Part shown: piece by piece, positions 6,864-19,593 of the stretch
Layout: every line of letters begins with the position of its first letter
Numbering within the stretch: the stretch's first letter is position 1
Virus record (IMG/VR): IMGVR_UViG_3300036770_005052
Location: 80,423 to 144,422 of that record
From: a virus
DNA: 64,000 nucleotides
Reading direction: 5' to 3' (one strand)
The notes under the pieces: generated by a model
Told to the model about the DNA's origin: nothing
Databases searched by the model: none
What the model saw: only the letters and a program-made list of their open reading frames with translations
Program-made: the position numbers and the translations under genes

Positions 6864-9800
6864 ATGGTAAGATATAATTCTGGAAGAGTAAGAAAATTTG
6901 ATCAAACAGGTATAACCTCAGATCGATATCAATTTTTGGGTTTAGAGCAAGCAGAACCAGATTTAGGTGATCCTATAGTTGGAGTATCTTCTGTCATCGC
7001 AAATCCAGCTCCTCCAGGAGATCAATATGTATTAGCGGCAGTTGATGGGCAAGTTGGAAAAAGATATTGGTTAAAAAGTACCAATCTTGTAGGAATTGGA
7101 TCCACAGGAACTCAAGGAACTGCTGGTCCTCCTGGATCACAAGGAGTTCAAGGCTCACTCAGTAATTTTCAAGGAACTCAAGGTAGGCAAGGAACTCAAG
7201 GTAATCAAGGTCTTCAAGGGAATCAAGGAATTCAAGGAGTTCAAGGATTCTTAAGTAACTTCCAAGGAACGCAAGGCAATCAAGGTTCTCAAGGAACTCA
7301 AGGTAATCAAGGTCTTCAAGGAACACAAGGTAATCAAGGTCTTCAAGGAACTTCTGGAAATCAAGGTTCTCAAGGTCTACAAGGAAATCAAGGAGTTCAA
7401 GGTGTTCAGGGATTTTTAAGTAATTTCCAAGGAACACAAGGAAATCAAGGTTCTCAAGGTCTACAAGGAAATCAAGGTACTCAAGGTCTACAAGGGTCAA
7501 TTGGTTCTCAAGGAACTCAAGGATTCCAGGGAATACAGGGTAATCAAGGTACTCAAGGTCTACAAGGGTCAATTGGTTCTCAAGGAACTCAAGGATTCCA
7601 GGGAATACAAGGAAATCAAGGTCTCCAAGGTAATTTTGGTAATCAAGGAGTACAAGGAGCACAAGGATCTCAAGGAGTTCAAGGACCTAATGGATCTTTT
7701 GGTGCGAAAGGTGATCAAGGAGTGCAAGGTCTCCAAGGGTTACAAGGAACATCAGTTCAAGGGTCTCAGGGTGCTCAGGGAGTTTTAAGCAATTTCCAAG
7801 GAACTCAGGGTAATCAAGGTATTCAAGGTTCTCAAGGAATGCAAGGAGCTCAGGGAGTTCAAGGATTCTTGAGCAATTTCCAAGGAACTCAGGGTAATCA
7901 AGGTCTTCAAGGGAATCAAGGAATTCAAGGAGTTCAAGGATTCTTAAGTAACTTCCAAGGAACGCAAGGTATTCAAGGTTCTCAAGGTTCTCAAGCAACT
8001 CAAGGTGTTCAAGGAGCACAAGGTTCAATTGGTCCTCAAGGATTTCAAGGACTTCAAAGTTCTCAAGGAATGCAAGGTAATATTGGTAATCAAGGTGGAC
8101 AAGGACTTCAAGGTTTACAGGGAACCCAAGGATTTAGTGGATCCACAGGTTCTAAAGGAGATCAAGGTGCTCAAGGTCTTCAAGGATTACAGGGATCACA
8201 GGGTAATCAAGGATTATCAAATCAAGGACCTCAAGGTCCTCAAGGTTCTCAAGGTTCTCAAGGATTACAAGGTTCTCAAGGAACACAAGGGTTTACTGGA
8301 GGTGAAGGAAGACAAGGAGCTCAAGGACCCCAAGGTGTTCAAGGATTAAGTGGAGGTGAAGGAAGACAAGGAGCTCAGGGACCCCAAGGTGTTCAAGGTG
8401 TTCAAGGTCTTCAAGGTTTTAGTGGTAATGTCGGATCAAAGGGTGATCAGGGCGCTCAAGGTGTTGGAGCACAGGGTACTCAAGGTCTTCAAGGTTTCAG
8501 TGGTAGTATTGGTGGAAAAGGTGACCAAGGAGCACAAGGGATTCAAGGTGTTCAAGGTCTTACTGGAATTTCACCATTAACATCAGCAAGTCTTGCTGTC
8601 ATTGATGCCGCAGTTTCTTCTACAATCAATTTGGGATCTGGAGCAAGACTATCAACGGTTGCTAGTGTCAGTGCAATGGCAACCAGAACTGAAGTTCCTG
8701 GTTCAACTTCAATTGTAGTGTTTGATGGAAATGGAAATAGATCTGCAACAACTGCAGGAAAATATTATTTGTCTGCTGTTTCCAAATTGTTCTATTGGGT
8801 AAATCGTGGTGGTGGTGGATGGGGAGATGACCCAGCTGGTACTACAGTTGAATTGCAGTTTTCTTATGATGGTTCTACAGGATGGACAGCTTTAGATCAA
8901 GTTACAACTTCAATAGTATCTTCCAATAATACTTGGATTCAAAGAGAAATTATATTGTCTAATTTTTCAGGATCTCAATATTATAATGGTGTTTATCTAA
9001 GATTTGTTCAATCTCCATTATCAAGATCTAGTAATGTTGATACTTGGGCATTTACTTCCGTAATTTATCAAGCAGGATCTGCAGGTGGTGGTGGTTCTAC
9101 ATCCACAGGATCTAATTCTTTGGCAGTCATGGATGTTTCATCAACATCTACAATTTCTCTTCCATCATACCCAAGCACATCAGGTGTAAGACTAACCACA
9201 GTTAGTGGCGTTACTGGAATGACATCCAGAACTGAAGTTCCTGGTTCAACTCCAATTGTAGTATTTGATGGAAATGGAATTGCAAATTCCACAAGAACAG
9301 TAACATTACCAAATAGGGTTTATTTGTCAACTGTTAATAAACTTTATTATTGGGTTATTAAAGGTGGTGGTGGATGGGGTGATGAACCTTTTGATACTTT
9401 GTCATTACAATATTCTTATGATGGTACTAATTGGTTAGGTACTATTGATTCTACAGCTTATCAAGATATTTTATCTACAAATACATGGACTCAAAAGTCT
9501 GTAACAGTTCCTGCAGCCGCCAAATATTATAATGGTGTTTACTTAAGATTTTCGCAACCTGGTTATAATACATCTAGTACTTATAGAAGTTGGGCTATAA
9601 CTTCTATTATACCTGATTTTGGTGCTGCTGGTGGGGGAAGTTCTGGTGGATCAACTTCTCTTGCTTTAGTTGATTTATCATCTTCAAATAATTTTGATTT
9701 TCCAACCCCTCAGCCTGGAGCTAGATTAACAACAGTTTCCGCTGTTACTGGAATGGCAACCAGAACTGAAGTTCCTGGTTCAACTCCAATTGTAGTATTT

Positions 9801-11738
9801 GATGGCAATGGTTTTTATGGTTCAACTAGAACAGCTACAATTAAAAATAAAGTATTTCTTGCTAACGTTGATAAAGTTTATTATTGGGTTATTAAAGGCG
9901 GTGGTGGATGGGGCGATGAACCTTTTGATACTTTATCATTACAATATTCGATTGATGGAACTGCTTGGTCAGCTACTATTGACTCTACAAATTATTCAGA
10001 TATTTTATCTACAAATAGTTGGACTCTAAAGTCTGTAACAGTTCCTGCAGGTGCCAAATATTATAATGGTGTTTACTTAAGATTTTCACAACCTGGTTAT
10101 AATACATCTAGTGTTTATAGAAGTTGGGCATTTACTTCAGTTTTATTTGATTTAAACAGTATATCTTCATCAGGATCTGGAAAATCTACATCATTTGCTT
10201 TGATGGATTTATCATCTTCATCTAATATTATTTTCCCAACTCCTCAACCTGGAACTAGATTAACGACAGTTGGTAGTGTTACTGGAATGGCAACCAGAAC
10301 TGAAGTGCCATCTTCAACACCAATTGTGGTATTTGACGGTAATGGTTTTTATGGTTCAACTAGATGGGTTTCAATACCAAATAAAGTCTTTTTAGGTGGT
10401 ATGTCCAGACTATATTATTGGGTAAATCGTGGTGGTGGTGGATGGGGAGATACCCCCTATGACACTTTATCATTACAGTATTCAATTGATGGAACTACTT
10501 GGTCAGCCACTATTGATTCAATTTCACAAACAACTAGTTATGATGGTACAAGTGAAATTTCAAGTAATCAATGGACTTTAAGAGAAGTTGATATTCCACA
10601 AGGAGCCAAATATTATAATGGTGTTTACTTAAGATTTTCACAATCTACTTATAATACATCAAATGTATATTATACTTGGGCAGTAACTTCAATAGTTGCA
10701 ACTATTAACGAATATGATCAATCTTATACACCAAGTACACTTAGTTTAATTGATCTCTTAAATCAAGATACTTTTAATCTGACAAAACCACGTACAGCTG
10801 CAAGAATAACTACAGTTAGTGGTGTTGCTGGAATGGCAACCAGAACTGAAGTGCCATCTTCAACACCAATTGTGGTATTTGGTGAGGCTGACTTATATCC
10901 TGGATTTTATGGTTCATCAAGAACATTAACAAATAGATCGAAAATTTTCCTCTCTAATGTTAATCAAGTTCAATTTTATGTTAATAAAGGTGGATCTAAT
11001 GGGGCTCAAACATGGGGTGATGAACCATTTTCATCATTATTTTTACAATATTCCGCCGATGGAATTACTTGGTCTACACTTTATGAAGTAGTAAGGACTA
11101 CAGTATCACCAAATACATGGACTCTTCAAACTGTCACAGTTCCAGCGGGAGCAAAATACTACAATGGAGTTTTCTTAAGATTCTCCCAACAATCTTATAA
11201 TGCATCTTCTTCATATTACACATGGGCAGCTACATCAGTAGTGGCACTTCCATCATCTGGAACTTCTGGAACTATTAGTTATTCTGACGATACAACAACA
11301 AACAGTACATATTATCCATCCGTAATTTCCGCAACTAGTGGTGGTTCTTTAAGAATTTCTTCCACAAAACTAACATACAACCCTTCAACTGGAAGACTTT
11401 CTTCAAGTAGTGTTTCTGACTCTAAAGGAGACTTAAGAACAATTCCAGTTAATGTGAAAAGTACTGGATATACACTAGTGCTTTCTGATGCTGGTAAGAT
11501 TATATCAACATCTTCTGGAATAACAATTCCTACTAATGTCTTTAGTAGTGGAGATGCTATTAGTGTATTTAATAATTCAGCATCAACACAAACAATAACT
11601 GCAAGTTCCGTTACGATGTATTTTCCTGGTTATTCTTCAGCTTTTGGATCTATAACATTGGATGCGAGAGGTGTATGCACAATTCTTTGTGTATCATCTA
11701 ATGTTTTTGTAATTTCTGGTGCAGGATTGATACCATGA
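6864..11738 (+). CDS. Collagen-like tail fibre with five tandem Reelin-subrepeat-like (Asp-box jelly-roll) domains
   Basis: 1624 aa. G-X-Q tract at ~7097-8567. Five ~180-aa repeats: 'RTEVP.ST.IVVF.G....WG D.P...L.LQYS.DG..W....W....V.VP..AKYYNGVYLRFSQ....WA.TS'. Confidence 0.8.
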   Translation: MVRYNSGRVRKFDQTGITSDRYQFLGLEQAEPDLGDPIVGVSSVIANPAPPGDQYVLAAVDGQVGKRYWLKSTNLVGIGSTGTQGTAGPPGSQGVQGSLSNFQGTQGRQGTQGNQGLQGNQGIQGVQGFLSNFQGTQGNQGSQGTQGNQGLQGTQGNQGLQGTSGNQGSQGLQGNQGVQGVQGFLSNFQGTQGNQGSQGLQGNQGTQGLQGSIGSQGTQGFQGIQGNQGTQGLQGSIGSQGTQGFQGIQGNQGLQGNFGNQGVQGAQGSQGVQGPNGSFGAKGDQGVQGLQGLQGTSVQGSQGAQGVLSNFQGTQGNQGIQGSQGMQGAQGVQGFLSNFQGTQGNQGLQGNQGIQGVQGFLSNFQGTQGIQGSQGSQATQGVQGAQGSIGPQGFQGLQSSQGMQGNIGNQGGQGLQGLQGTQGFSGSTGSKGDQGAQGLQGLQGSQGNQGLSNQGPQGPQGSQGSQGLQGSQGTQGFTGGEGRQGAQGPQGVQGLSGGEGRQGAQGPQGVQGVQGLQGFSGNVGSKGDQGAQGVGAQGTQGLQGFSGSIGGKGDQGAQGIQGVQGLTGISPLTSASLAVIDAAVSSTINLGSGARLSTVASVSAMATRTEVPGSTSIVVFDGNGNRSATTAGKYYLSAVSKLFYWVNRGGGGWGDDPAGTTVELQFSYDGSTGWTALDQVTTSIVSSNNTWIQREIILSNFSGSQYYNGVYLRFVQSPLSRSSNVDTWAFTSVIYQAGSAGGGGSTSTGSNSLAVMDVSSTSTISLPSYPSTSGVRLTTVSGVTGMTSRTEVPGSTPIVVFDGNGIANSTRTVTLPNRVYLSTVNKLYYWVIKGGGGWGDEPFDTLSLQYSYDGTNWLGTIDSTAYQDILSTNTWTQKSVTVPAAAKYYNGVYLRFSQPGYNTSSTYRSWAITSIIPDFGAAGGGSSGGSTSLALVDLSSSNNFDFPTPQPGARLTTVSAVTGMATRTEVPGSTPIVVFDGNGFYGSTRTATIKNKVFLANVDKVYYWVIKGGGGWGDEPFDTLSLQYSIDGTAWSATIDSTNYSDILSTNSWTLKSVTVPAGAKYYNGVYLRFSQPGYNTSSVYRSWAFTSVLFDLNSISSSGSGKSTSFALMDLSSSSNIIFPTPQPGTRLTTVGSVTGMATRTEVPSSTPIVVFDGNGFYGSTRWVSIPNKVFLGGMSRLYYWVNRGGGGWGDTPYDTLSLQYSIDGTTWSATIDSISQTTSYDGTSEISSNQWTLREVDIPQGAKYYNGVYLRFSQSTYNTSNVYYTWAVTSIVATINEYDQSYTPSTLSLIDLLNQDTFNLTKPRTAARITTVSGVAGMATRTEVPSSTPIVVFGEADLYPGFYGSSRTLTNRSKIFLSNVNQVQFYVNKGGSNGAQTWGDEPFSSLFLQYSADGITWSTLYEVVRTTVSPNTWTLQTVTVPAGAKYYNGVFLRFSQQSYNASSSYYTWAATSVVALPSSGTSGTISYSDDTTTNSTYYPSVISATSGGSLRISSTKLTYNPSTGRLSSSSVSDSKGDLRTIPVNVKSTGYTLVLSDAGKIISTSSGITIPTNVFSSGDAISVFNNSASTQTITASSVTMYFPGYSSAFGSITLDARGVCTILCVSSNVFVISGAGLIP
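7097..8567 (+). repeat. Gly-X-Gln collagen-like tract 2
   Basis: 9-nt periodic repeat; about six xLSNFQG interruptions; shares identical DNA blocks with tract 1. Confidence 0.95.
8580..11250 (+). repeat. Five ~540-nt coding repeats (Reelin-like domains)
   Basis: 'ccagaactgaagt' anchor recurs at about 8683, 9226, 9760, 10294 and 10840. Confidence 0.9.
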
Positions 11739-12409: not shown

Positions 12410-12438
12410 TTGACAACCCTTCACAGATGCTATATAAT
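12410..12438 (+). promoter_or_regulatory. Sigma70-type promoter
   Basis: TTGACA (12410-15), 17 nt, TATAAT (12433-38). Confidence 0.85.
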
Positions 12439-12463
12439 ACTCAGGTAATCAATCAAAGACCAA

Positions 12464-12649
12464 ATGAAAACCGAAGAGTTCTTGAGTCGTTGCGTTGTCG
12501 ATACTCTTGCACGTAAATTTTACCTATATTCTAGTGAAGGTTCAGAACGAATCGTAGAATGCGAGAATGTTGACCAGTTTATGAACGTACTGGAAGTTGT
12601 GCGCACTCAGGTAAGTGAAGATTGTCTTGCATACACCGATCCTCTTTAA
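12464..12649 (+). CDS. Conserved cyanophage-type hypothetical protein
   Basis: 61-aa ORF directly after a consensus promoter. Confidence 0.7.
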   Translation: MKTEEFLSRCVVDTLARKFYLYSSEGSERIVECENVDQFMNVLEVVRTQVSEDCLAYTDPL

Positions 12650-12652
12650 GAA

Positions 12653-12826
12653 ATGGAAGTTTTCACTGTAGATGAATTTCAAGAACATTTTGATAAACTC
12701 ATGGAAAGAGTCGAAAATGGTGAACATCTAGGTATAATCAACGAAAACGGCCAGGCGACAGTGATGATGCCATACGATGATGACCTTATACGAATACACA
12801 CTGAATTAAACAACGAAGCATCTTGA
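12653..12826 (+). CDS. Phd/YefM-like antitoxin-domain protein (not in ORF track)
   Basis: MEVFTVDEFQEHFDKLMERVENGEHLGIINENGQATVMMPYDDD...(57 aa) fits the Phd N-terminal pattern T..EF...F..L..RV..GE...I....G...V..P. Confidence 0.65.
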   Translation: MEVFTVDEFQEHFDKLMERVENGEHLGIINENGQATVMMPYDDDLIRIHTELNNEAS

Positions 12827-12851
12827 CAAAGAGTTCCAGATCCTCTATAAT
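12823..12851 (+). promoter_or_regulatory. Sigma70-type promoter for tRNA locus
   Basis: TTGACA (12823-28), 17 nt, TATAAT (12846-51). Confidence 0.85.
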
Positions 12852-12863
12852 TGATCTGTTCAA

Positions 12864-12951
12864 GCGAGTGAGACTTGGTAGTCAGAGGAGTCTTATAAAC
12901 TCTTTCCGCCAGATTAGCGGCTTTGACCTGGTTCGAATCCAGGCACTCGTA
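12864..12951 (+). tRNA. Non-canonical tRNA, anticodon UAU (nominally Ile), long variable region
   Basis: Acceptor GCGAGTG/CACTCGT+A; T-arm CCTGG-TTCGAAT-CCAGG; anticodon arm GGAGT-CTTATAA-ACTCT (TAT at 12894-96); small D hairpin GACT-TGGT-AGTC; extra arm CCGC-CAGATTA-GCGG. Confidence 0.75.
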
Positions 12952-12953
12952 TC

Positions 12954-13005
12954 TGCTTACCCATTTTGTAGTGGGTTTTAGAGGGTAAGCAACAGTAAAC
13001 CTACT
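12954..13005 (+). ncRNA. Putative H-type pseudoknot between the two tRNAs
   Basis: S1 TGCTTACCC(12954-62)/GGGTAAGCA(12983-91); S2 AGTGGGTTT(12970-78)/AAACCTACT(12997-13005). Confidence 0.4.
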
Positions 13006-13008
13006 TGA

Positions 13009-13093
13009 AAAGCGGTGACGTAACTGGTAGCCGTATCAGACTTAAAATCTGCTGGGAGTATTCCCGTGGGGGTTCGATTCCCCCCTCGCCCTA
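13009..13093 (+). tRNA. tRNA-Leu(UAA), acceptor stem defective (possible pseudo-tRNA)
   Basis: D arm ACG/CGT; anticodon loop CT-TAA-AA (13043-45); variable arm GGGA/TCCC; T arm GGGGG-TTCGATT-CCCCC. The 5' strand AAAGCGG pairs poorly with the 3' (C)TCGCCC(T). Confidence 0.7.
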
Positions 13094-13464: not shown

Positions 13465-16400
13465 ATGCCTCTTAATAAGTTAGAGAATTTTATTAAGAAT
13501 ACAGAAGGTCGTATTCTTTATGTAAATCCAAATGATCTTGATTCAACTGATTCGATTACTAATCAAGGAAATTCACTTGCTCAACCGTTTAAGACTGTAC
13601 AAAGAGCTCTTTTAGAATCAGCAAGATTTTCTTATTTGAGAGGTTATAATAATGATCTTACTGAAAAAACTACAATTTTACTTTTTCCAGGTGAACATTT
13701 AATTGACAATAGACCTGGTTATGCAATTTATGATAATGATCCCCTTGGTGCATATGCGGTTCCCCCAACTGGTGGTGTTGGAGTTCCTGCACCACAAACT
13801 TTATCATTAGAACTAGATTCAGTATTTGATCTGACTGATCCAGACAATATTCTTTACAAATTTAATAGTGTATATGGTGGTGTTATTGTTCCTCGTGGCA
13901 CTTCAATTGTCGGTCTTGATTTAAGAAAGACTAAGATTCGTCCAAAATATGTCCCAAATCCAACCGACCCAAGTGCAACTAATTCTGCAATTTTTAGAAT
14001 TACTGGTGCTTGCTATTTTTGGCAATTATCAATCTTTGATGGTGATGAAAGTGGATTAGTTTATACAAATCCAACATATTCTACCAGTATATATCAATCT
14101 ACTCCTACGTTTTCTCACCACAAACTAACTTGTTTTGAATATGCGGATGGTGTAAATCCTGTTGGTTCTTATGAATTAACAGATCTTGATATGTATTATA
14201 GTAAGCTCTCGAATGCTTACAATACTTATAGAAATATTGATGCAAAATATCCTTCTGAACCATTAGGATTTTCGAAAAAAGCCCCAGAATGGGAAATTGT
14301 TGGTGCATTCGCATCTGATCCTATTGATATTACTGGATTATTTTCGGGCAATGGTACAACTGCCGGAGCTAGAGTTACTGTAACTACCGCGTTTGAACAT
14401 AATTTAAATTCCGGAACTCCAATTAAAATTCGTGATGTTTCGGAAGGAACTTATAATGTTTCAACAAAAGTACAAGAAGTTTTAAGTCCAACTCAATTTA
14501 CATATCTCTTAACCTCATTTCCAATCAATTTAGATGCAAATCCAAGTGTATCTGGTGCAACAGTTACTGTCGAAACGGATACTGTCTCTGGTGCTTCTCC
14601 ATACATTTTTAACTGCTCTTTAAGATCAGTATGGGGTATGAACGGAATGCACGCTGATGGGTCAAAGGCATCAGGCTTCCGTTCCATGGTTGTTGCACAG
14701 TTCACCGCAGTATCACTACAAAAAGATGACCGTGCATTTGTAAAATATAATAATGTAGCAAGAGCATATGAAGGTGTTACCATTTCTCCAGTATCAGGAG
14801 CAGCTTTATCATCTGGCTCTTCTCAAACTGATGCAGAATTGGTTTATCACTTAGATCAAAACGCAATATATCGAAATGGATGGGAAACTAGCCATATTAA
14901 AATTTCCAATGATTCCTTTATTCAAATCGTATCTGTTTTTGCAATTGGTTTTAATAAGCATTTTGATGTTCAAAGTGGTAGTGATGCATCTATTACAAAC
15001 TCCAACTCTAATTTTGGTCAAATTTCATTAAATGCTGAAGGTTTTAAAAATGCTGCCTTTGGCAAAGATAATAAAGCATTTATTACATCAATTATACCTC
15101 CCAGAAATATTGATGAATTTGATGAAGACATTATTGAATGGCTTTCTTTAGATGTTGGCATTACAACTGCATATGGTAATGATACTACTGATACCTCTAG
15201 ACTTTACCTTTATGGTTTTACTGCCAAAGATAGTCTTCCAGTTAGCTTAACACAAGGATATCGTGTCGGTGCTCGTAAAAATGATATCTTATATCTTTCA
15301 TATAATGGGGTAGAATATAATGCTAAAATATACATGGAGGATCCTAGTGGTGTTGGATTAATTAGTGCTGAAAAATCATATTCAGTAATAGGATCTCCAT
15401 CAAATAATATTTTTACTTTAAATACTCCTTTAAATTTATTAACAACTGGAGAAAAAGTTGTTATTAATAGTGAAGATGGAGATCTGCCCGAAAATATAAC
15501 AGAGCATATTCCATATTATGTCATTAAAATTAATTCAACTCAAATCAAATTAGCAACATCATATACTAATGCAATTTTAGACAACCCAATTACTGTTTAT
15601 GGTGGAACAAATCTAATCATCAAAAGTAGGGTGTCTGATAAAAATGCTGGTGAATATGGTTCTCCTCTTCAATATGATGATACCTATCAAAATTGGTATA
15701 TAAAAGTTGCAGAAGATAATCAAATATATAATCTTCTCAATACAATTGGTGTTCAAACACTTACAGAAACTACAGATTTAAGTTATATAAAAAGAGTTTC
15801 TGATGGAAGAGCTCTTGATGAAAAATTATATAAAGTTAGGGTAGTTATTCCAAAAGAATTTGCAAATGCAAAAAATCCAGAATCTGGATTTGTTTTGCAA
15901 GAATCAAGTTCAACTGGTGCTAGAAATTCTGCAGATTTTAGTCGTACTACAATATCAACAAGTGATTATGACTATAAGAAAAACCCAAGATTTATTGAAA
16001 AATGTACATTACAAGATAATACAGTAACAGTCACTACAGAACTTCCTCATAATTTAAAAGTTGGGGATATTGTAATTATTAAATATGTAACTGACACTAT
16101 TAATACTACTGGAGATCAAACTTTAGGATACAATGGTTATTTTAAAGTTACGACTATCCCAAATATAATGAGTTTTCAATATGATATTGTAGATATAAAA
16201 GGAAAGTCACACTCTCCTGGAGTTTTTACTAATGATGTAACAAATAGAACAACAACATTACCAAGATATGAAAGAAATGATTTAAAATCAAATATATTCA
16301 TTTATAGAAATCAAGTAATTTCTCCATATATTGAAAACAGCCAAGATGGAATCTACCATCTTTATCTACTGAATGCAAGCAATACAGTCTCAACAGAGTT

Positions 16401-19400
16401 TACAAATTTACAATACAGTCAAAATAGTGTTGATTTATACCCCCAATTAGATAGAGATAATTTCGATTCTAACCCAGAATCTTCTATTACATTTGCCAAG
16501 AGAAATCCAATTGGTGATATTGTAACAAATGATCTTAAAAGAAGTGTTACTAGAGAAACTGTTGATAAATTACTAAAAGATTTTGGAAAAGGATTGAGAA
16601 TTTCTAATGTTTCTAGTACATCATCTTCCGCAACGATTACAATTGATCGTGATCATTTGTTAGGCGGAATAGTTGGATATTCTGCTTTAACTGGTGGAAG
16701 TGGTCATACTCCAGGAACTTATTATAATGTAAAATTATATAATGATCTTGCCTTATCTGAATGGAATGGTGCAACAGCAAAAGTTACAGTTTCAGGTTCT
16801 GGATCTGTTACAAATGCTGAGATAATTGCAAACGGTTCTGCATATACAAATAATTCAACTTTATATTTTGACAGTTTAAAAATTGGTGGATCTGCAAGTG
16901 CAAGAATTACAGTTTCAACTTCTGGAATTTCTACAAGTATAGGTGATGTTGTACAAATTGCTGGAGCTGGCACTACAACTTCAAATCAATATTATAGGAT
17001 TACTTCATTACCAGCAACAAATCAAATAGCAGTTGCAAGAACATCTGGTGATGCTTCTATTGCTTCTGGTCAATATGCATTAGTTATTGGCCCATCAGTA
17101 AAAATTAGTAGCACATCATACACATCAAATACAGGTCTTTTAACAGTTAATTCATCATCTGCACACGGATTATTGGCTGGAAATAGATTTAGAATTATTG
17201 ATTCATCAAATAATAATCTTGGTGACTATGTTGTAAATGAAAGAATTAGCTTAACTTCATTTACAGCTTTTACATATAAATCTATTTCTGCATCAAATGG
17301 ATTTATTTTAAAACATGGCTTATCAGCTAATAATGGAGTTTCTGATACTAGAGGTGAAAACTTAGGTGTAAGAGGAATTCCATTATATGCAAATGAGTCA
17401 TTAAAACTTCAAAATTCAATTACAACAGATACTGTAATTGATGTATTACCATCTACGGTTGGAATAACAACAATTGCAGGAAGATTCCCATTAGGATCTT
17501 ATATTCAAATTGATAATGAAATTATGAGAATCACTACTTCTGGTAGTGAAACTACATTTGGTGTTATCAGAGGTTCTTTGGGAACACGTCAAGAAGATCA
17601 TGATGCAAATTCTATAATTCGTAAAATTGAACCAATAGCAGTAGAATTTAGAAGACCTTCAATTTTACGTGCATCTGGTCACACATTTGAATATATGGGA
17701 TTTGGACCTGGCAACTATTCAACGGGTCTTCCGCAAGTTCAAATACGTGCTCTTACAGATAGAGAGGAATTTCTTTCACAAGCACAAGAAAGATCTTGTG
17801 GTGCTGTAATTTACACTGGAATGAATAATAAAGGTGATGTTTACAGTGGTAATACAAAAACTATTGCATCTAGTGGTGAGATTATTTCTTATGACATTCC
17901 AAAACCAACAGTAACTGGACAAGATCCTACAAAATTAAGTGTTGTATTTGACGAAGTTACTGTTAAAGAAAGATTATTGGTTGAAGGTGGTGCATCTGCA
18001 ACTGTTCTTTCCCAATTTAACGGACCTCTTACACTTAATGGGCAACTTAGAGTTAAGGCAAAAGCAACATTTAGTAGACAAGTAAAAATTTCAAATACTA
18101 CACCATCAACCAACAAATTTACTGGTGCTTTGATCATCAATGGTGGTGTAGGAATTCTTGAAAATATAAATGTTGGTGGAATTGGTTCATTCTCAAATTC
18201 TCAAGATTCAACTACTATTGCCAACGGATCTATAGTTACAAATGGTGGAGTTGGAATTGAAAAAAGACTTAATGTTGGCGGCGCAGTTGGATTTACAAGT
18301 ACTACAGACTCGACAAGTGGATCAACTGGAGCATTTGTGATAACTGGTGGTGTTGGAATTGGCAAAAACTTAAATGTTAGTGGAATTACAAATGCTGAAA
18401 ACAGCACCGATTCCACATTAATTTCAAATGGATCTTTAACCGTTCAAGGTGGAGTTGGAATTAGAAAAAGACTTAATGTTGGTGGTGCTGTTGGATTTAC
18501 AAGTACTACAGATTCCACATCCACAACTTCTGGCGCATTAATTGTAACTGGTGGTGTTGGAATTGGTAAAACAGTATTCATTGGTGGTAGTTTAAATGTT
18601 GCATTAACTAGATCTACAACTCTTGGTGGAACATTGAGTGTTGTTGGAAATACAAATTTGAGTGGAACATTGGGTGTTGCAGCTGGTCAAGCAACTGATC
18701 TTGGCGGAACATTAAATGTTGATGGTGCCACAACATTGCAAAGCACATTAGATGTTACTGGAAGTTCAACATTTAATAGTAATACCACAATTAATGGAAT
18801 ATTAGATGTAAACTCTGGTGCCACTATTGATAATATCAGAATTGGAATTGCAAATGACAATACAATTGACACAAGCACTGGTGGATTAACATTAGATTCT
18901 TCGAGTGGTACAACTACAATCAGCGATAATACTACTATAACAGGAACTCTTGATGTTTCTGCAAATATAACTGGAAGTAGTGCTATCAGTGCTACTGGTA
19001 ATATTAGTGCTGGTAATAGATTAATTGGACAACTTCAAAGATCAGTCAGAATTGTGGGGTCTGGGGTCGATTCTACATTTAACAATAGCAGTGATGTTAC
19101 AGTTACCCTACCAGACAAAACTAAAATAACAGTTTCTGGAAGCACAGATCCTGGTATTTCAAATGGATTTAGGGAAAATATGACTGCAACCAGACAGGGT
19201 GATGCAGATACTTTGATGTTTAGGGGAATCAATGGTGGAACTTCAGTAGGAAGTGGTGGACTCACATGTGCTGGTGATATTATTGCATTTGCTTCTGATG
19301 AAAGATTAAAAACTAATATTGAGCCAATCGAAAATGCGGTTGATAAGGTACTCAAACTCCGTGGATTTACATATAACTTTAATGAAATTGGAGAAGAACT

Positions 19401-19593
19401 TGGATTTGATGCATCACTAAGACATGCAGGTGTATCCGCACAAGAAGTTCAAGAAGTTCTTCCAGAAGCAGTTTGCCCTGCTCCTGCAAGCGATGAGTAT
19501 CTGACAGTTAAATATGAAAAACTTGTACCACTTCTTATTGAAGCAATTAAAGAATTAAGAGCAGAAATAAATGAGCTGAGGAGATCTAAATAG
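13465..19593 (+). CDS. Long tail fibre protein with C-terminal intramolecular chaperone (peptidase S74)
   Basis: 2042 aa. 'GAL...GGVGI.K.L.VGG' fibre repeats; C-terminal 'SDERLKTNIEPIENAVDKV..LRG..Y....GVSAQEV..VLPEAV...V.YEKLVPLLIEAIKEL'; CTAAATA late-promoter variant at 13426. Confidence 0.9.
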   Translation: MPLNKLENFIKNTEGRILYVNPNDLDSTDSITNQGNSLAQPFKTVQRALLESARFSYLRGYNNDLTEKTTILLFPGEHLIDNRPGYAIYDNDPLGAYAVPPTGGVGVPAPQTLSLELDSVFDLTDPDNILYKFNSVYGGVIVPRGTSIVGLDLRKTKIRPKYVPNPTDPSATNSAIFRITGACYFWQLSIFDGDESGLVYTNPTYSTSIYQSTPTFSHHKLTCFEYADGVNPVGSYELTDLDMYYSKLSNAYNTYRNIDAKYPSEPLGFSKKAPEWEIVGAFASDPIDITGLFSGNGTTAGARVTVTTAFEHNLNSGTPIKIRDVSEGTYNVSTKVQEVLSPTQFTYLLTSFPINLDANPSVSGATVTVETDTVSGASPYIFNCSLRSVWGMNGMHADGSKASGFRSMVVAQFTAVSLQKDDRAFVKYNNVARAYEGVTISPVSGAALSSGSSQTDAELVYHLDQNAIYRNGWETSHIKISNDSFIQIVSVFAIGFNKHFDVQSGSDASITNSNSNFGQISLNAEGFKNAAFGKDNKAFITSIIPPRNIDEFDEDIIEWLSLDVGITTAYGNDTTDTSRLYLYGFTAKDSLPVSLTQGYRVGARKNDILYLSYNGVEYNAKIYMEDPSGVGLISAEKSYSVIGSPSNNIFTLNTPLNLLTTGEKVVINSEDGDLPENITEHIPYYVIKINSTQIKLATSYTNAILDNPITVYGGTNLIIKSRVSDKNAGEYGSPLQYDDTYQNWYIKVAEDNQIYNLLNTIGVQTLTETTDLSYIKRVSDGRALDEKLYKVRVVIPKEFANAKNPESGFVLQESSSTGARNSADFSRTTISTSDYDYKKNPRFIEKCTLQDNTVTVTTELPHNLKVGDIVIIKYVTDTINTTGDQTLGYNGYFKVTTIPNIMSFQYDIVDIKGKSHSPGVFTNDVTNRTTTLPRYERNDLKSNIFIYRNQVISPYIENSQDGIYHLYLLNASNTVSTEFTNLQYSQNSVDLYPQLDRDNFDSNPESSITFAKRNPIGDIVTNDLKRSVTRETVDKLLKDFGKGLRISNVSSTSSSATITIDRDHLLGGIVGYSALTGGSGHTPGTYYNVKLYNDLALSEWNGATAKVTVSGSGSVTNAEIIANGSAYTNNSTLYFDSLKIGGSASARITVSTSGISTSIGDVVQIAGAGTTTSNQYYRITSLPATNQIAVARTSGDASIASGQYALVIGPSVKISSTSYTSNTGLLTVNSSSAHGLLAGNRFRIIDSSNNNLGDYVVNERISLTSFTAFTYKSISASNGFILKHGLSANNGVSDTRGENLGVRGIPLYANESLKLQNSITTDTVIDVLPSTVGITTIAGRFPLGSYIQIDNEIMRITTSGSETTFGVIRGSLGTRQEDHDANSIIRKIEPIAVEFRRPSILRASGHTFEYMGFGPGNYSTGLPQVQIRALTDREEFLSQAQERSCGAVIYTGMNNKGDVYSGNTKTIASSGEIISYDIPKPTVTGQDPTKLSVVFDEVTVKERLLVEGGASATVLSQFNGPLTLNGQLRVKAKATFSRQVKISNTTPSTNKFTGALIINGGVGILENINVGGIGSFSNSQDSTTIANGSIVTNGGVGIEKRLNVGGAVGFTSTTDSTSGSTGAFVITGGVGIGKNLNVSGITNAENSTDSTLISNGSLTVQGGVGIRKRLNVGGAVGFTSTTDSTSTTSGALIVTGGVGIGKTVFIGGSLNVALTRSTTLGGTLSVVGNTNLSGTLGVAAGQATDLGGTLNVDGATTLQSTLDVTGSSTFNSNTTINGILDVNSGATIDNIRIGIANDNTIDTSTGGLTLDSSSGTTTISDNTTITGTLDVSANITGSSAISATGNISAGNRLIGQLQRSVRIVGSGVDSTFNNSSDVTVTLPDKTKITVSGSTDPGISNGFRENMTATRQGDADTLMFRGINGGTSVGSGGLTCAGDIIAFASDERLKTNIEPIENAVDKVLKLRGFTYNFNEIGEELGFDASLRHAGVSAQEVQEVLPEAVCPAPASDEYLTVKYEKLVPLLIEAIKELRAEINELRRSK

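Follow-up and report, generated by a model that had tools for sequence, protein, structure and literature searches.

The UAU tRNA locus

Record IMGVR_UViG_3300036770_005052 (144 kb, 35% GC, CheckV completeness of 62%) belongs to a T4-like cyanomyovirus whose nearest isolate is Synechococcus phage S-SRM01. In the 64-kb stretch of this record analyzed here, which we refer to as the window, ARAGORN identified two tRNA genes, a tRNA-Ile(tat) (hereafter, the UAU tRNA) and a tRNA-Leu(taa), while the other 21 tRNAs of the phage genome reside in an array ~80 kb away that includes a normal tRNA-Ile(GAU) and a tRNA(CAU). The features of the locus are listed in Table 1. The UAU tRNA is preceded by a sigma-70-type promoter that fully agrees with the consensus, as the original prediction had stated. 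Among 60 distinct upstream flanks of sister genes, 22 carried a promoter match of at least 10/12, most of them 12–16 nt upstream.

Table 1. Features of the UAU tRNA locus (positions in the window)
Feature	Positions	Strand	Basis or remark
Sigma-70-type promoter, TTGACA-17 nt-TATAAT	12823–12851	+	12/12 consensus match; 12 nt separate it from the start of the tRNA
Complete 88-nt tRNA gene with UAU anticodon; CCA not encoded	12864–12951	+	ARAGORN; five-arm fold; RNAalifold; covariation
Acceptor stem, 5′ strand GCGAGTG	12864–12870	+	Pairs with 12944–12950 (CACTCGT); 7 bp, G1·U72
A8 connector and compact D hairpin, GACT-UGGU-AGUC	12871–12883	+	4 bp, 4-nt loop; hairpin itself at 12872–12883
Purine tract AGAG, nt 21–24	12884–12887	+	Pairs with UUU 12903–12905 or CUUU 12921–12924
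Anticodon arm	12887–12903	+	5-bp stem, extendable to 7 bp (12885–12905); loop CU-UAU-AA
Anticodon loop, CT-TAT-AA	12892–12898	+	Anticodon UAU at 12894–12896
Second hairpin, CCGC-CAGAUUA-GCGG	12906–12920	+	GAU at 12912–12914, in anticodon-equivalent loop positions
Six-nt linker CUUUGA, second hairpin to T stem	12921–12926	+	Candidate strand of a long-range helix
T arm, CCUGG-UUCGAAU-CCAGG	12927–12943	+	4/5 pairs covary; 100% of cells paired
Discriminator base A73	12951	+	
tRNA-Leu(UAA)-like gene	13009–13093	+	ARAGORN; below Rfam cut-off; alignment with Syn9 and S-SM2 tRNA-Leu

The tRNA-Leu(UAA)-like neighbor is probably co-transcribed with the UAU tRNA. Its anticodon, long, and T arms align with those of the Syn9 and S-SM2 tRNA-Leu genes (alignment A2), and its 5′ acceptor strand is unpaired with the 3′ strand CTCGCCC; in the RNAfold structure of the region, positions 13088–13092 pair instead with 12982–12986. 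The neighbor may be degenerate or unusually built. Inspection of alignment A2 showed that Syn9 tRNA-Leu, like the UAU tRNA, has a G1·U72 pair.

The spacer between the two tRNAs (12952–13008) contains a strong hairpin (ACCCAUU/AGUGGGU). In about 40 of 57 compact (type-A) sister loci, a tRNA(CAU) gene directly follows the UAU tRNA (e.g., at 687–761 in L122 and 2046–2119 in L001), an adjacency that may bear on AUG/AUA discrimination. The window has no tRNA(CAU) at this point, where the 57-nt spacer lies, and S-SRM01 has an HNH endonuclease gene inserted between the UAU tRNA and tRNA(CAU).

Architecture of the UAU tRNA

The UAU tRNA has several features of canonical elongator tRNAs (RF00005), namely a 7-bp acceptor stem, a 5-bp T stem, a T loop of the form UUCRANY, and a discriminator base. 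However, two elements of the RF00005 core are absent: U8 with its 2-nt connector, and a D stem carrying a 7–11-nt D loop. A8 is the sole connector between the acceptor stem and the D hairpin. The anticodon loop contains U33, A37, and A38. The original prediction had described A73, intact acceptor and T arms, the lack of U8, a D hairpin of 4 bp with a 4-nt loop, and a CCGC/GCGG stem within a long extra arm, and all of these are present in the sequence.

The minimum-free-energy structure computed by RNAfold (z = −2.6) is a cloverleaf of five arms in which the anticodon stem is 7 bp long. No Rfam match reached the gathering score anywhere in the 64-kb window. The best clan match for the UAU tRNA was tRNA-Sec (RF01852), which scored 29.7 bits (cut-off, 47); the shared 4-nt D loop and long extra arm evidently account for this match.

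Conservation and covariation

An unannotated copy of the UAU tRNA, identical at 88/88 positions, is found in S-SRM01, where the upstream flank is unrelated to that of the window, and the identical 88-mer also occurs, in differing flanks, on at least about a dozen contigs of IMG/VR. In addition, S-SKS1 carries a diverged copy in which this architecture is kept, and a further member of the family is present in S-CRM01. To assess the structure, we used an alignment (A1) of 48 distinct compact-type sequences taken among the matches listed in IMG/VR. The five-arm cloverleaf accounted for this alignment well, with 98.1% of cells paired and 24 of 27 pairs changed on both sides; none of 500 shuffles reached this level of covariation, and slid registers remained at ≤48%. 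RNAalifold independently predicted the five-arm structure.

Specifically, all 7 acceptor pairs covary with 100% of cells paired, and the first pair (1–72; A1 pair 1–91) is G·U in 42 of the 48 distinct compact members. The D hairpin is likewise paired in 100% of cells and changed on both sides at 4/4 pairs, with compensatory variants that include GACU/AGUC, GUGU/ACAC, GGCC/GGCC, GCAC/GUGC, and CUGU/ACAG, and the GG of its 4-nt loop is invariant. The layout with A8 alone and a 4-bp D stem closing a 4-nt loop is kept in 48/48 members. Covariation in the anticodon stem was found at A1 pairs 25–28/36–39. The fully paired T arm, with 4/5 pairs covarying, establishes a 7/5 acceptor/T branch, in which 12/12 pairs are kept and 11/12 covary. 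An allo-tRNA-like 8/4 branch was considered and rejected, since the first T-stem pair (68–84 in A1) covaries (GC, 18; CG, 15; UA, 11; and AU, 4) and A8 is left without a partner.

Sampling by an 18-mer of the D region alone yielded, among the matches listed, 58 distinct genes, all of which have the anticodon UAU (58/58) and the second loop CAGAUUA (58/58). Their T loops are of three kinds, and their stems occur in many variants. The UAU tRNA gene is real and under strong selection rather than decaying.

Anticodon-stem extension and long-range helix

According to the original prediction, TCAGAG (12882–12887) can alternatively pair with CTTTGA (12921–12926) to form a three-way junction carrying both the anticodon and the extra hairpin. 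The two segments lie at these positions and are complementary with one G·U pair. The six-pair form was nevertheless rejected as written because it would break the fully paired and covarying D hairpin; in 21 of the 48 sequences in A1, its pair 19–67 does not form. The core of the proposal, AGAG/CUUU, is compatible with the D hairpin and stands as a possible helix.

In alignment A1, the long-range helix (pairs 20–24 with 62–66) is paired in 87.9% of cells and has 32 double-sided cells, compared with ≤56% and ≤12, respectively, in slid registers. The anticodon-stem extension (pairs 22–24 with 40–42) is paired in 96.5% of cells, and, with purines opposite a U run, one slid register still gives 84.7%. 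A perfect Watson-Crick long-range helix forms in two independent compact lineages, L299 (AGCA/UGCU) and L207 (ACAA/UUGU), in both of which the extension is impossible. Conversely, L006, L231, and L401 lack the long-range helix, and their anticodon stem is 6 bp long and covaries from C-G to G-C.

In the lineage of the window gene, AGAG can pair with either UUU or CUUU. AGAG, UUU, and CUUUGA are invariant in 38/38 distinct 88-nt members sampled among the matches listed, and because all three segments are constant, sequence comparison does not separate the 7-bp stem from the long-range helix here. A mutual-information scan of the linker nucleotides gave a signal that tracks lineage (i.e., D-hairpin type), with no single Watson-Crick partner standing out. 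Between the anticodon and the GG loop, either fold would keep a stack of ~11–13 bp, which we infer to be near the canonical length.

A second hairpin displaying GAU defines a large tRNA family

The long extra arm of the UAU tRNA ends in a 7-nt loop with GAU at the positions that an anticodon would occupy. To determine how widespread this is, we examined 180 distinct long-arm UAU genes among the matches listed, with the arm left unconstrained, and counted as a GAU hairpin any stem of three or more base pairs that closes a 7-nt loop in which GAU occupies positions 3–5. Such a hairpin was present in 160 of the 180 genes, while the next commonest loop triplet occurred 22 times. Sampling in the reverse direction, from CAGATTA plus the T loop, showed a UAU anticodon loop upstream in ~114 of 121 distinct matches listed. 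The UAU+GAU family is very large among viruses, with at least hundreds of phage sequences sharing the design.

In A1, the stem of the second hairpin covaries and the GAU of its loop is invariant. The loop consensus is Y-A-G-A-U-N-N across the family and Y-A-G-A-U-N-A in a tally of 216 genes, and 4–7 unpaired nucleotides (mostly 5, and 6 in the window gene) separate the hairpin from the T stem. The window gene has the defining features of the family: a Y-U-UAU-A-N loop closed by 4 bp or more, a YAGAUNN hairpin, a 4–7-nt linker, and A73. Among the 216 genes tallied from the matches listed, the pair equivalent to 29–41 is C-G in 170 of the second arms but in only 44 of the UAU arms, and the second loop has A at position 7 in 166, A at position 2 in 206, and mostly U at position 6. 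The bacterial Ile identity set comprises A73, C4-G69, U12-A23, G16/U20/U21, C29-G41, G34, A35, U36, A37, and A38 (PMC9976931). The second arm thus copies most Ile determinants of the anticodon branch, having G34, A35, U36, A38, and a C29-G41-like pair, but its loop, which lacks U33 and A37, reproduces an Ile anticodon loop incompletely.

Members with a normal D arm (e.g., L042, L017, and the Pyrinomonadaceae genes) contain the same two hairpins, followed by a class I-like 5-nt loop. The topology of the family is a junction bearing two anticodon-type hairpins. We also detected the design in genomes of Acidobacteriota (Pyrinomonadaceae) by a bacterial-genome scan with a single pattern requiring the loop CTTATAA, which restricts the scan to UAU genes; the same scan revealed no compact type-A copy. 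Loci from bacterial metagenome-assembled genomes (such as L444, L430, L513, L442, and L477) have Ser/Leu-like class II bodies with a CTTATAA loop and no GAU hairpin, and these long-armed UAU tRNAs differ in kind from the UAU+GAU family.

Two possible contacts of the second loop were also considered. Pairing of its GAUU with AAUC of the T loop was rejected, as CAGAUUA co-occurs with UUCGAAU, UUCGAUU/C, and UUCAAAU, and inspection of the two 7-nt loops for kissing found no usable complementarity between them.

AUA usage and decoding

The ORFs of the phage use ATA at 16.2 per 1,000 codons, compared with 16.1 for ATG, and ATA makes up 23% of Ile codons, while TTA makes up 36% of Leu codons. Since both of these A-ending codons are heavily used by this AT-rich phage, the promoter-driven unit appears to supply decoders for AUA and UUA. 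These data, together with conservation, the promoter, and the canonical anticodon loop, support the earlier suggestion of an unusual AUA decoder.

We then asked which amino acid best fits the positions encoded by ATA. In 15 ORFs matching Syn9, 63 ATA positions could be aligned, and the log-likelihoods were −162.8 for Ile, −168.7 for Val, and −174.9 for Leu, i.e., Ile was favored over Leu by 12 log-likelihood units, in a profile that also reflects the host's own AUA tRNA. No UAU tRNA was found in the 150 kb of Syn9 examined. Small as the sample is, the ATA profile speaks against a general decoding of AUA as Leu or Ser. The idea that the tRNA is mischarged with Leu, also part of the original prediction, thus finds no support in these 63 codons, whose columns appear to fit an Ile profile best.

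Proposed role of the GAU hairpin and alternative explanations

We consider it somewhat likelier than even, judging from sequence comparison, that the gene encodes a working phage tRNA for AUA codons, with Ile as the most probable amino acid, and that the GAU hairpin secures charging by IleRS without TilS. In this scheme, the phage would supply an AUA decoder independent of lysidine modification by TilS. An ordinary bacterial IleRS would be expected to act poorly on a UAU anticodon, as E. coli IleRS charges tRNA-Ile(UAU) inefficiently (PMC3575796). The second hairpin would present the enzyme with features of tRNA-Ile(GAU), namely G34, A35, U36, A38, and the C29-G41-like pair, and recognition of this hairpin could secure Ile charging by an unadapted host IleRS, while the invariant GG of the tiny D loop would contact the T loop and preserve the L shape. 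On a normal tRNA, the variable arm points away from the anticodon-binding domain of IleRS, and in E. coli, t6A37 contributes strongly to recognition by IleRS. Given this arm geometry, charging through the GAU hairpin would need another docking mode or a rearranged junction.

A more specific version, which we regard as possible but tentative, is a two-faced tRNA in which the GAU arm is stacked for charging by IleRS and the UAU arm for reading AUA. Either hairpin could stack as the anticodon arm on the three-way junction, whose closing helix would be the D stem in members with a normal D arm and AGAG/CUUU otherwise. If so, identity and decoding would lie on two anticodon loops of one molecule, and the AUA decoder would be portable to any host without TilS or an adapted IleRS.

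Rather doubtful, in our estimation, is the alternative of an ordinary AUA-decoding tRNA-Ile in which IleRS reads the UAU loop itself together with A73 and the GAU hairpin serves another partner or purpose. It might be bound by a phage protein or by a U34-modifying enzyme that guards against AUG misreading, act as a processing signal, or brace the reduced core. The UAU loop with U33, A37, and A38 in a gene with A73 is consistent with this, and the A at position 2 in 206/216 second loops together with the lack of A37 would suit a loop read as a motif of its own, AGAU; the tRNA(CAU) directly after the gene in about 40/57 loci hints at AUG/AUA discrimination. However, such a tRNA would have to overcome the poor handling of UAU by E. 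coli IleRS (PMC3575796), and an unrelated partner would need neither a triplet that is exactly the Ile anticodon nor the C-G at the 29–41-like pair. Moreover, no candidate partner gene for the GAU hairpin was found next to the UAU tRNA among the neighboring ORFs of the window. A role outside translation, as a tRNA-like decoy or regulator (e.g., bait for an anticodon nuclease, or an RNA resembling the untranslatable allo-tRNA-UAU), appears unlikely. The unusual core, the scores below the Rfam tRNA cut-offs, and the Phd/YefM-like small ORF just upstream would accord with it, as would the reported failure in E. coli of allo-tRNA-UAU species with possible five-stem junctions, two of which were toxic (PMC5389517). 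Yet the anticodon loop, 7/5 branch, T loop, D-loop GG, and A73 are conserved as they are in functional tRNAs, the codon that the anticodon matches is used at 16 per 1,000, and sister phages have the gene among other tRNA genes. We know of no nuclease that targets tRNA-Ile.

Charging of a class II-like tRNA by LeuRS (or by SerRS or TyrRS), so that AUA would be read partly as another amino acid, seems quite improbable. A long extra arm with A73 is what LeuRS, which ignores the anticodon, might accept, and nev-tRNA-Ile(UAU), charged only with Leu, provides a precedent (PMC3333845). On the other hand, the conserved 7-nt loop and the 4–7-nt 3′ linker are unlike the arms of Leu, Ser, or Tyr tRNAs, the D region read by bacterial LeuRS is replaced with a hairpin of 4-nt loop, and there is neither G73 for SerRS nor G34/U35 for TyrRS; the preference of the ATA columns for Ile and the class I-like 5-nt loop that follows the arm in normal-D-arm members also count against it. 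The initial assignment of the extra arm to the Leu/Ser/Tyr/Sec type therefore does not hold for an arm with an invariant GAU-bearing 7-nt loop followed by 4–7 free nucleotides, in a tRNA with a 7/5 branch and A73. The probability of a decaying pseudogene of a class II tRNA, which the original prediction had named as a potential outcome, is practically negligible: although the gene is unannotated in S-SRM01, scores below the Rfam cut-off, and lies beside a tRNA-Leu with a poor acceptor stem, it is 100% identical across genomes with different flanks, shows compensatory changes in every helix, and has loops that are invariant in the 58 distinct genes sampled.

Comparison with known tRNAs

A search of the literature turned up work on nev-tRNA and allo-tRNA and reviews, and no paper clearly describing the UAU+GAU design was found in it. 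The tRNA-Ile(UAU) of Mycoplasma mobile reads AUA through UAU without lysidine, as the phage tRNA would, and faces the same problems of IleRS recognition and AUG misreading, but it is a normal class I cloverleaf whose IleRS has co-evolved (Arg865) to accept UAU (Taniguchi et al. 2013, PMC3575796). In contrast, the phage UAU tRNA must use a foreign host enzyme and has an extra GAU hairpin and a reduced D arm.

The nearest publication (Mukai et al. 2017, PMC5389517; reviewed in PMC7609411) describes allo-tRNA-UAU with five-stem junctions. Like the UAU+GAU family, allo-tRNAs are described there as abundant in metagenomes, with allo-tRNA-UAU coming from Acidobacteria and soil metagenomes. Once their anticodon had been replaced by CUA, such allo-tRNA-UAU species were inactive in E. 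coli, and the authors suggested that they may have no part in translation (PMC5389517). The defining features of allo-tRNAs are Ser identity, conferred by G73 together with a long arm, and a 12-bp acceptor/T branch split 8/4 or 9/3 (PMC5389517), so the phage UAU tRNA, with its 7/5 branch and A73, is by definition not an allo-tRNA. The text of that paper makes no mention of a GAU loop. Since the design is found in Acidobacteriota genomes, part of the published allo-tRNA-UAU set may belong to the UAU+GAU family.

The nematode nev-tRNA-Ile(UAU) likewise combines a UAU anticodon with a long-arm body and A73, but it is eukaryotic and tRNA-Leu derived, has an arm and D region of the Leu type, and is charged with Leu (Hamashima et al. 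2012, PMC3333845). In the phage UAU tRNA, by comparison, the arm is a hairpin that displays GAU, and AUA occurs at Ile-like positions. Bacterial tRNA-Sec (RF01852) shares the 4-nt D loop, a lengthened anticodon stem, and the long extra arm, but has a 13-bp acceptor branch (8/5), the anticodon UCA, and a 6-bp D stem, compared with 7/5, UAU, A73, and a 4-bp D stem in the phage tRNA. In class II tRNAs (Leu, Ser, and Tyr), an additional helix likewise lies between the anticodon arm and the T arm; its loop, however, is short and non-conserved, and the arm abuts the T stem, whereas the phage arm has a 7-nt loop with a fixed AGAU followed by 6 free nucleotides. Furthermore, class II isotype determinants are absent from the phage tRNA, which has no G73 (Ser), no G34/U35 (Tyr), and, in place of the D-loop and tertiary set of Leu, a D loop of only UGGU.

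Implications

The known solutions to the AUA/AUG problem comprise lysidine and agmatidine as well as, in M. mobile, a co-evolved IleRS. If IleRS reads the second hairpin, the UAU tRNA would be a natural tRNA whose amino-acid element is physically separate from its codon-reading element, and it would represent a new solution to this problem as well as a ready-made part for genetic-code engineering. Selection of a compact tRNA with a 4-nt D loop and a single connector in many cyanophages suggests that, outside mitochondria, the tRNA core tolerates more rewiring than assumed. Current annotation misses or mislabels UAU+GAU genes, as seen from the unannotated S-SRM01 copy and the Rfam scores below threshold, so phage tRNA inventories and codon-adaptation studies are likely to undercount AUA decoders.

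Other features near the tRNA genes

Within 12410–12826, a second perfect sigma-70 promoter (12410–12438) drives a 61-aa DUF7294 ORF and a 57-aa Phd/YefM-like ORF. The latter matches PF02604 with 28.9 bits, just below the cut-off of 29.8, and no toxin gene was found beside it; the same Phd-like ORF precedes the tRNAs in Syn9 and S-SKS1 too. Two giant ORFs flank the locus. Collagen repeats and reelin subrepeat-B domains occur in the 1,624-aa protein encoded at 6864–11738, and the ORF at 13465–19593 encodes a 2,042-aa fiber protein with a C-terminal Peptidase_S74 chaperone domain. In S-CRM01 (L123), an intact UAU+GAU tRNA (504–592) is followed by a fragment (~601–628) that is 96% identical to the second arm of the window gene and represents the remnant of another tRNA copy, located beside an HNH endonuclease gene.
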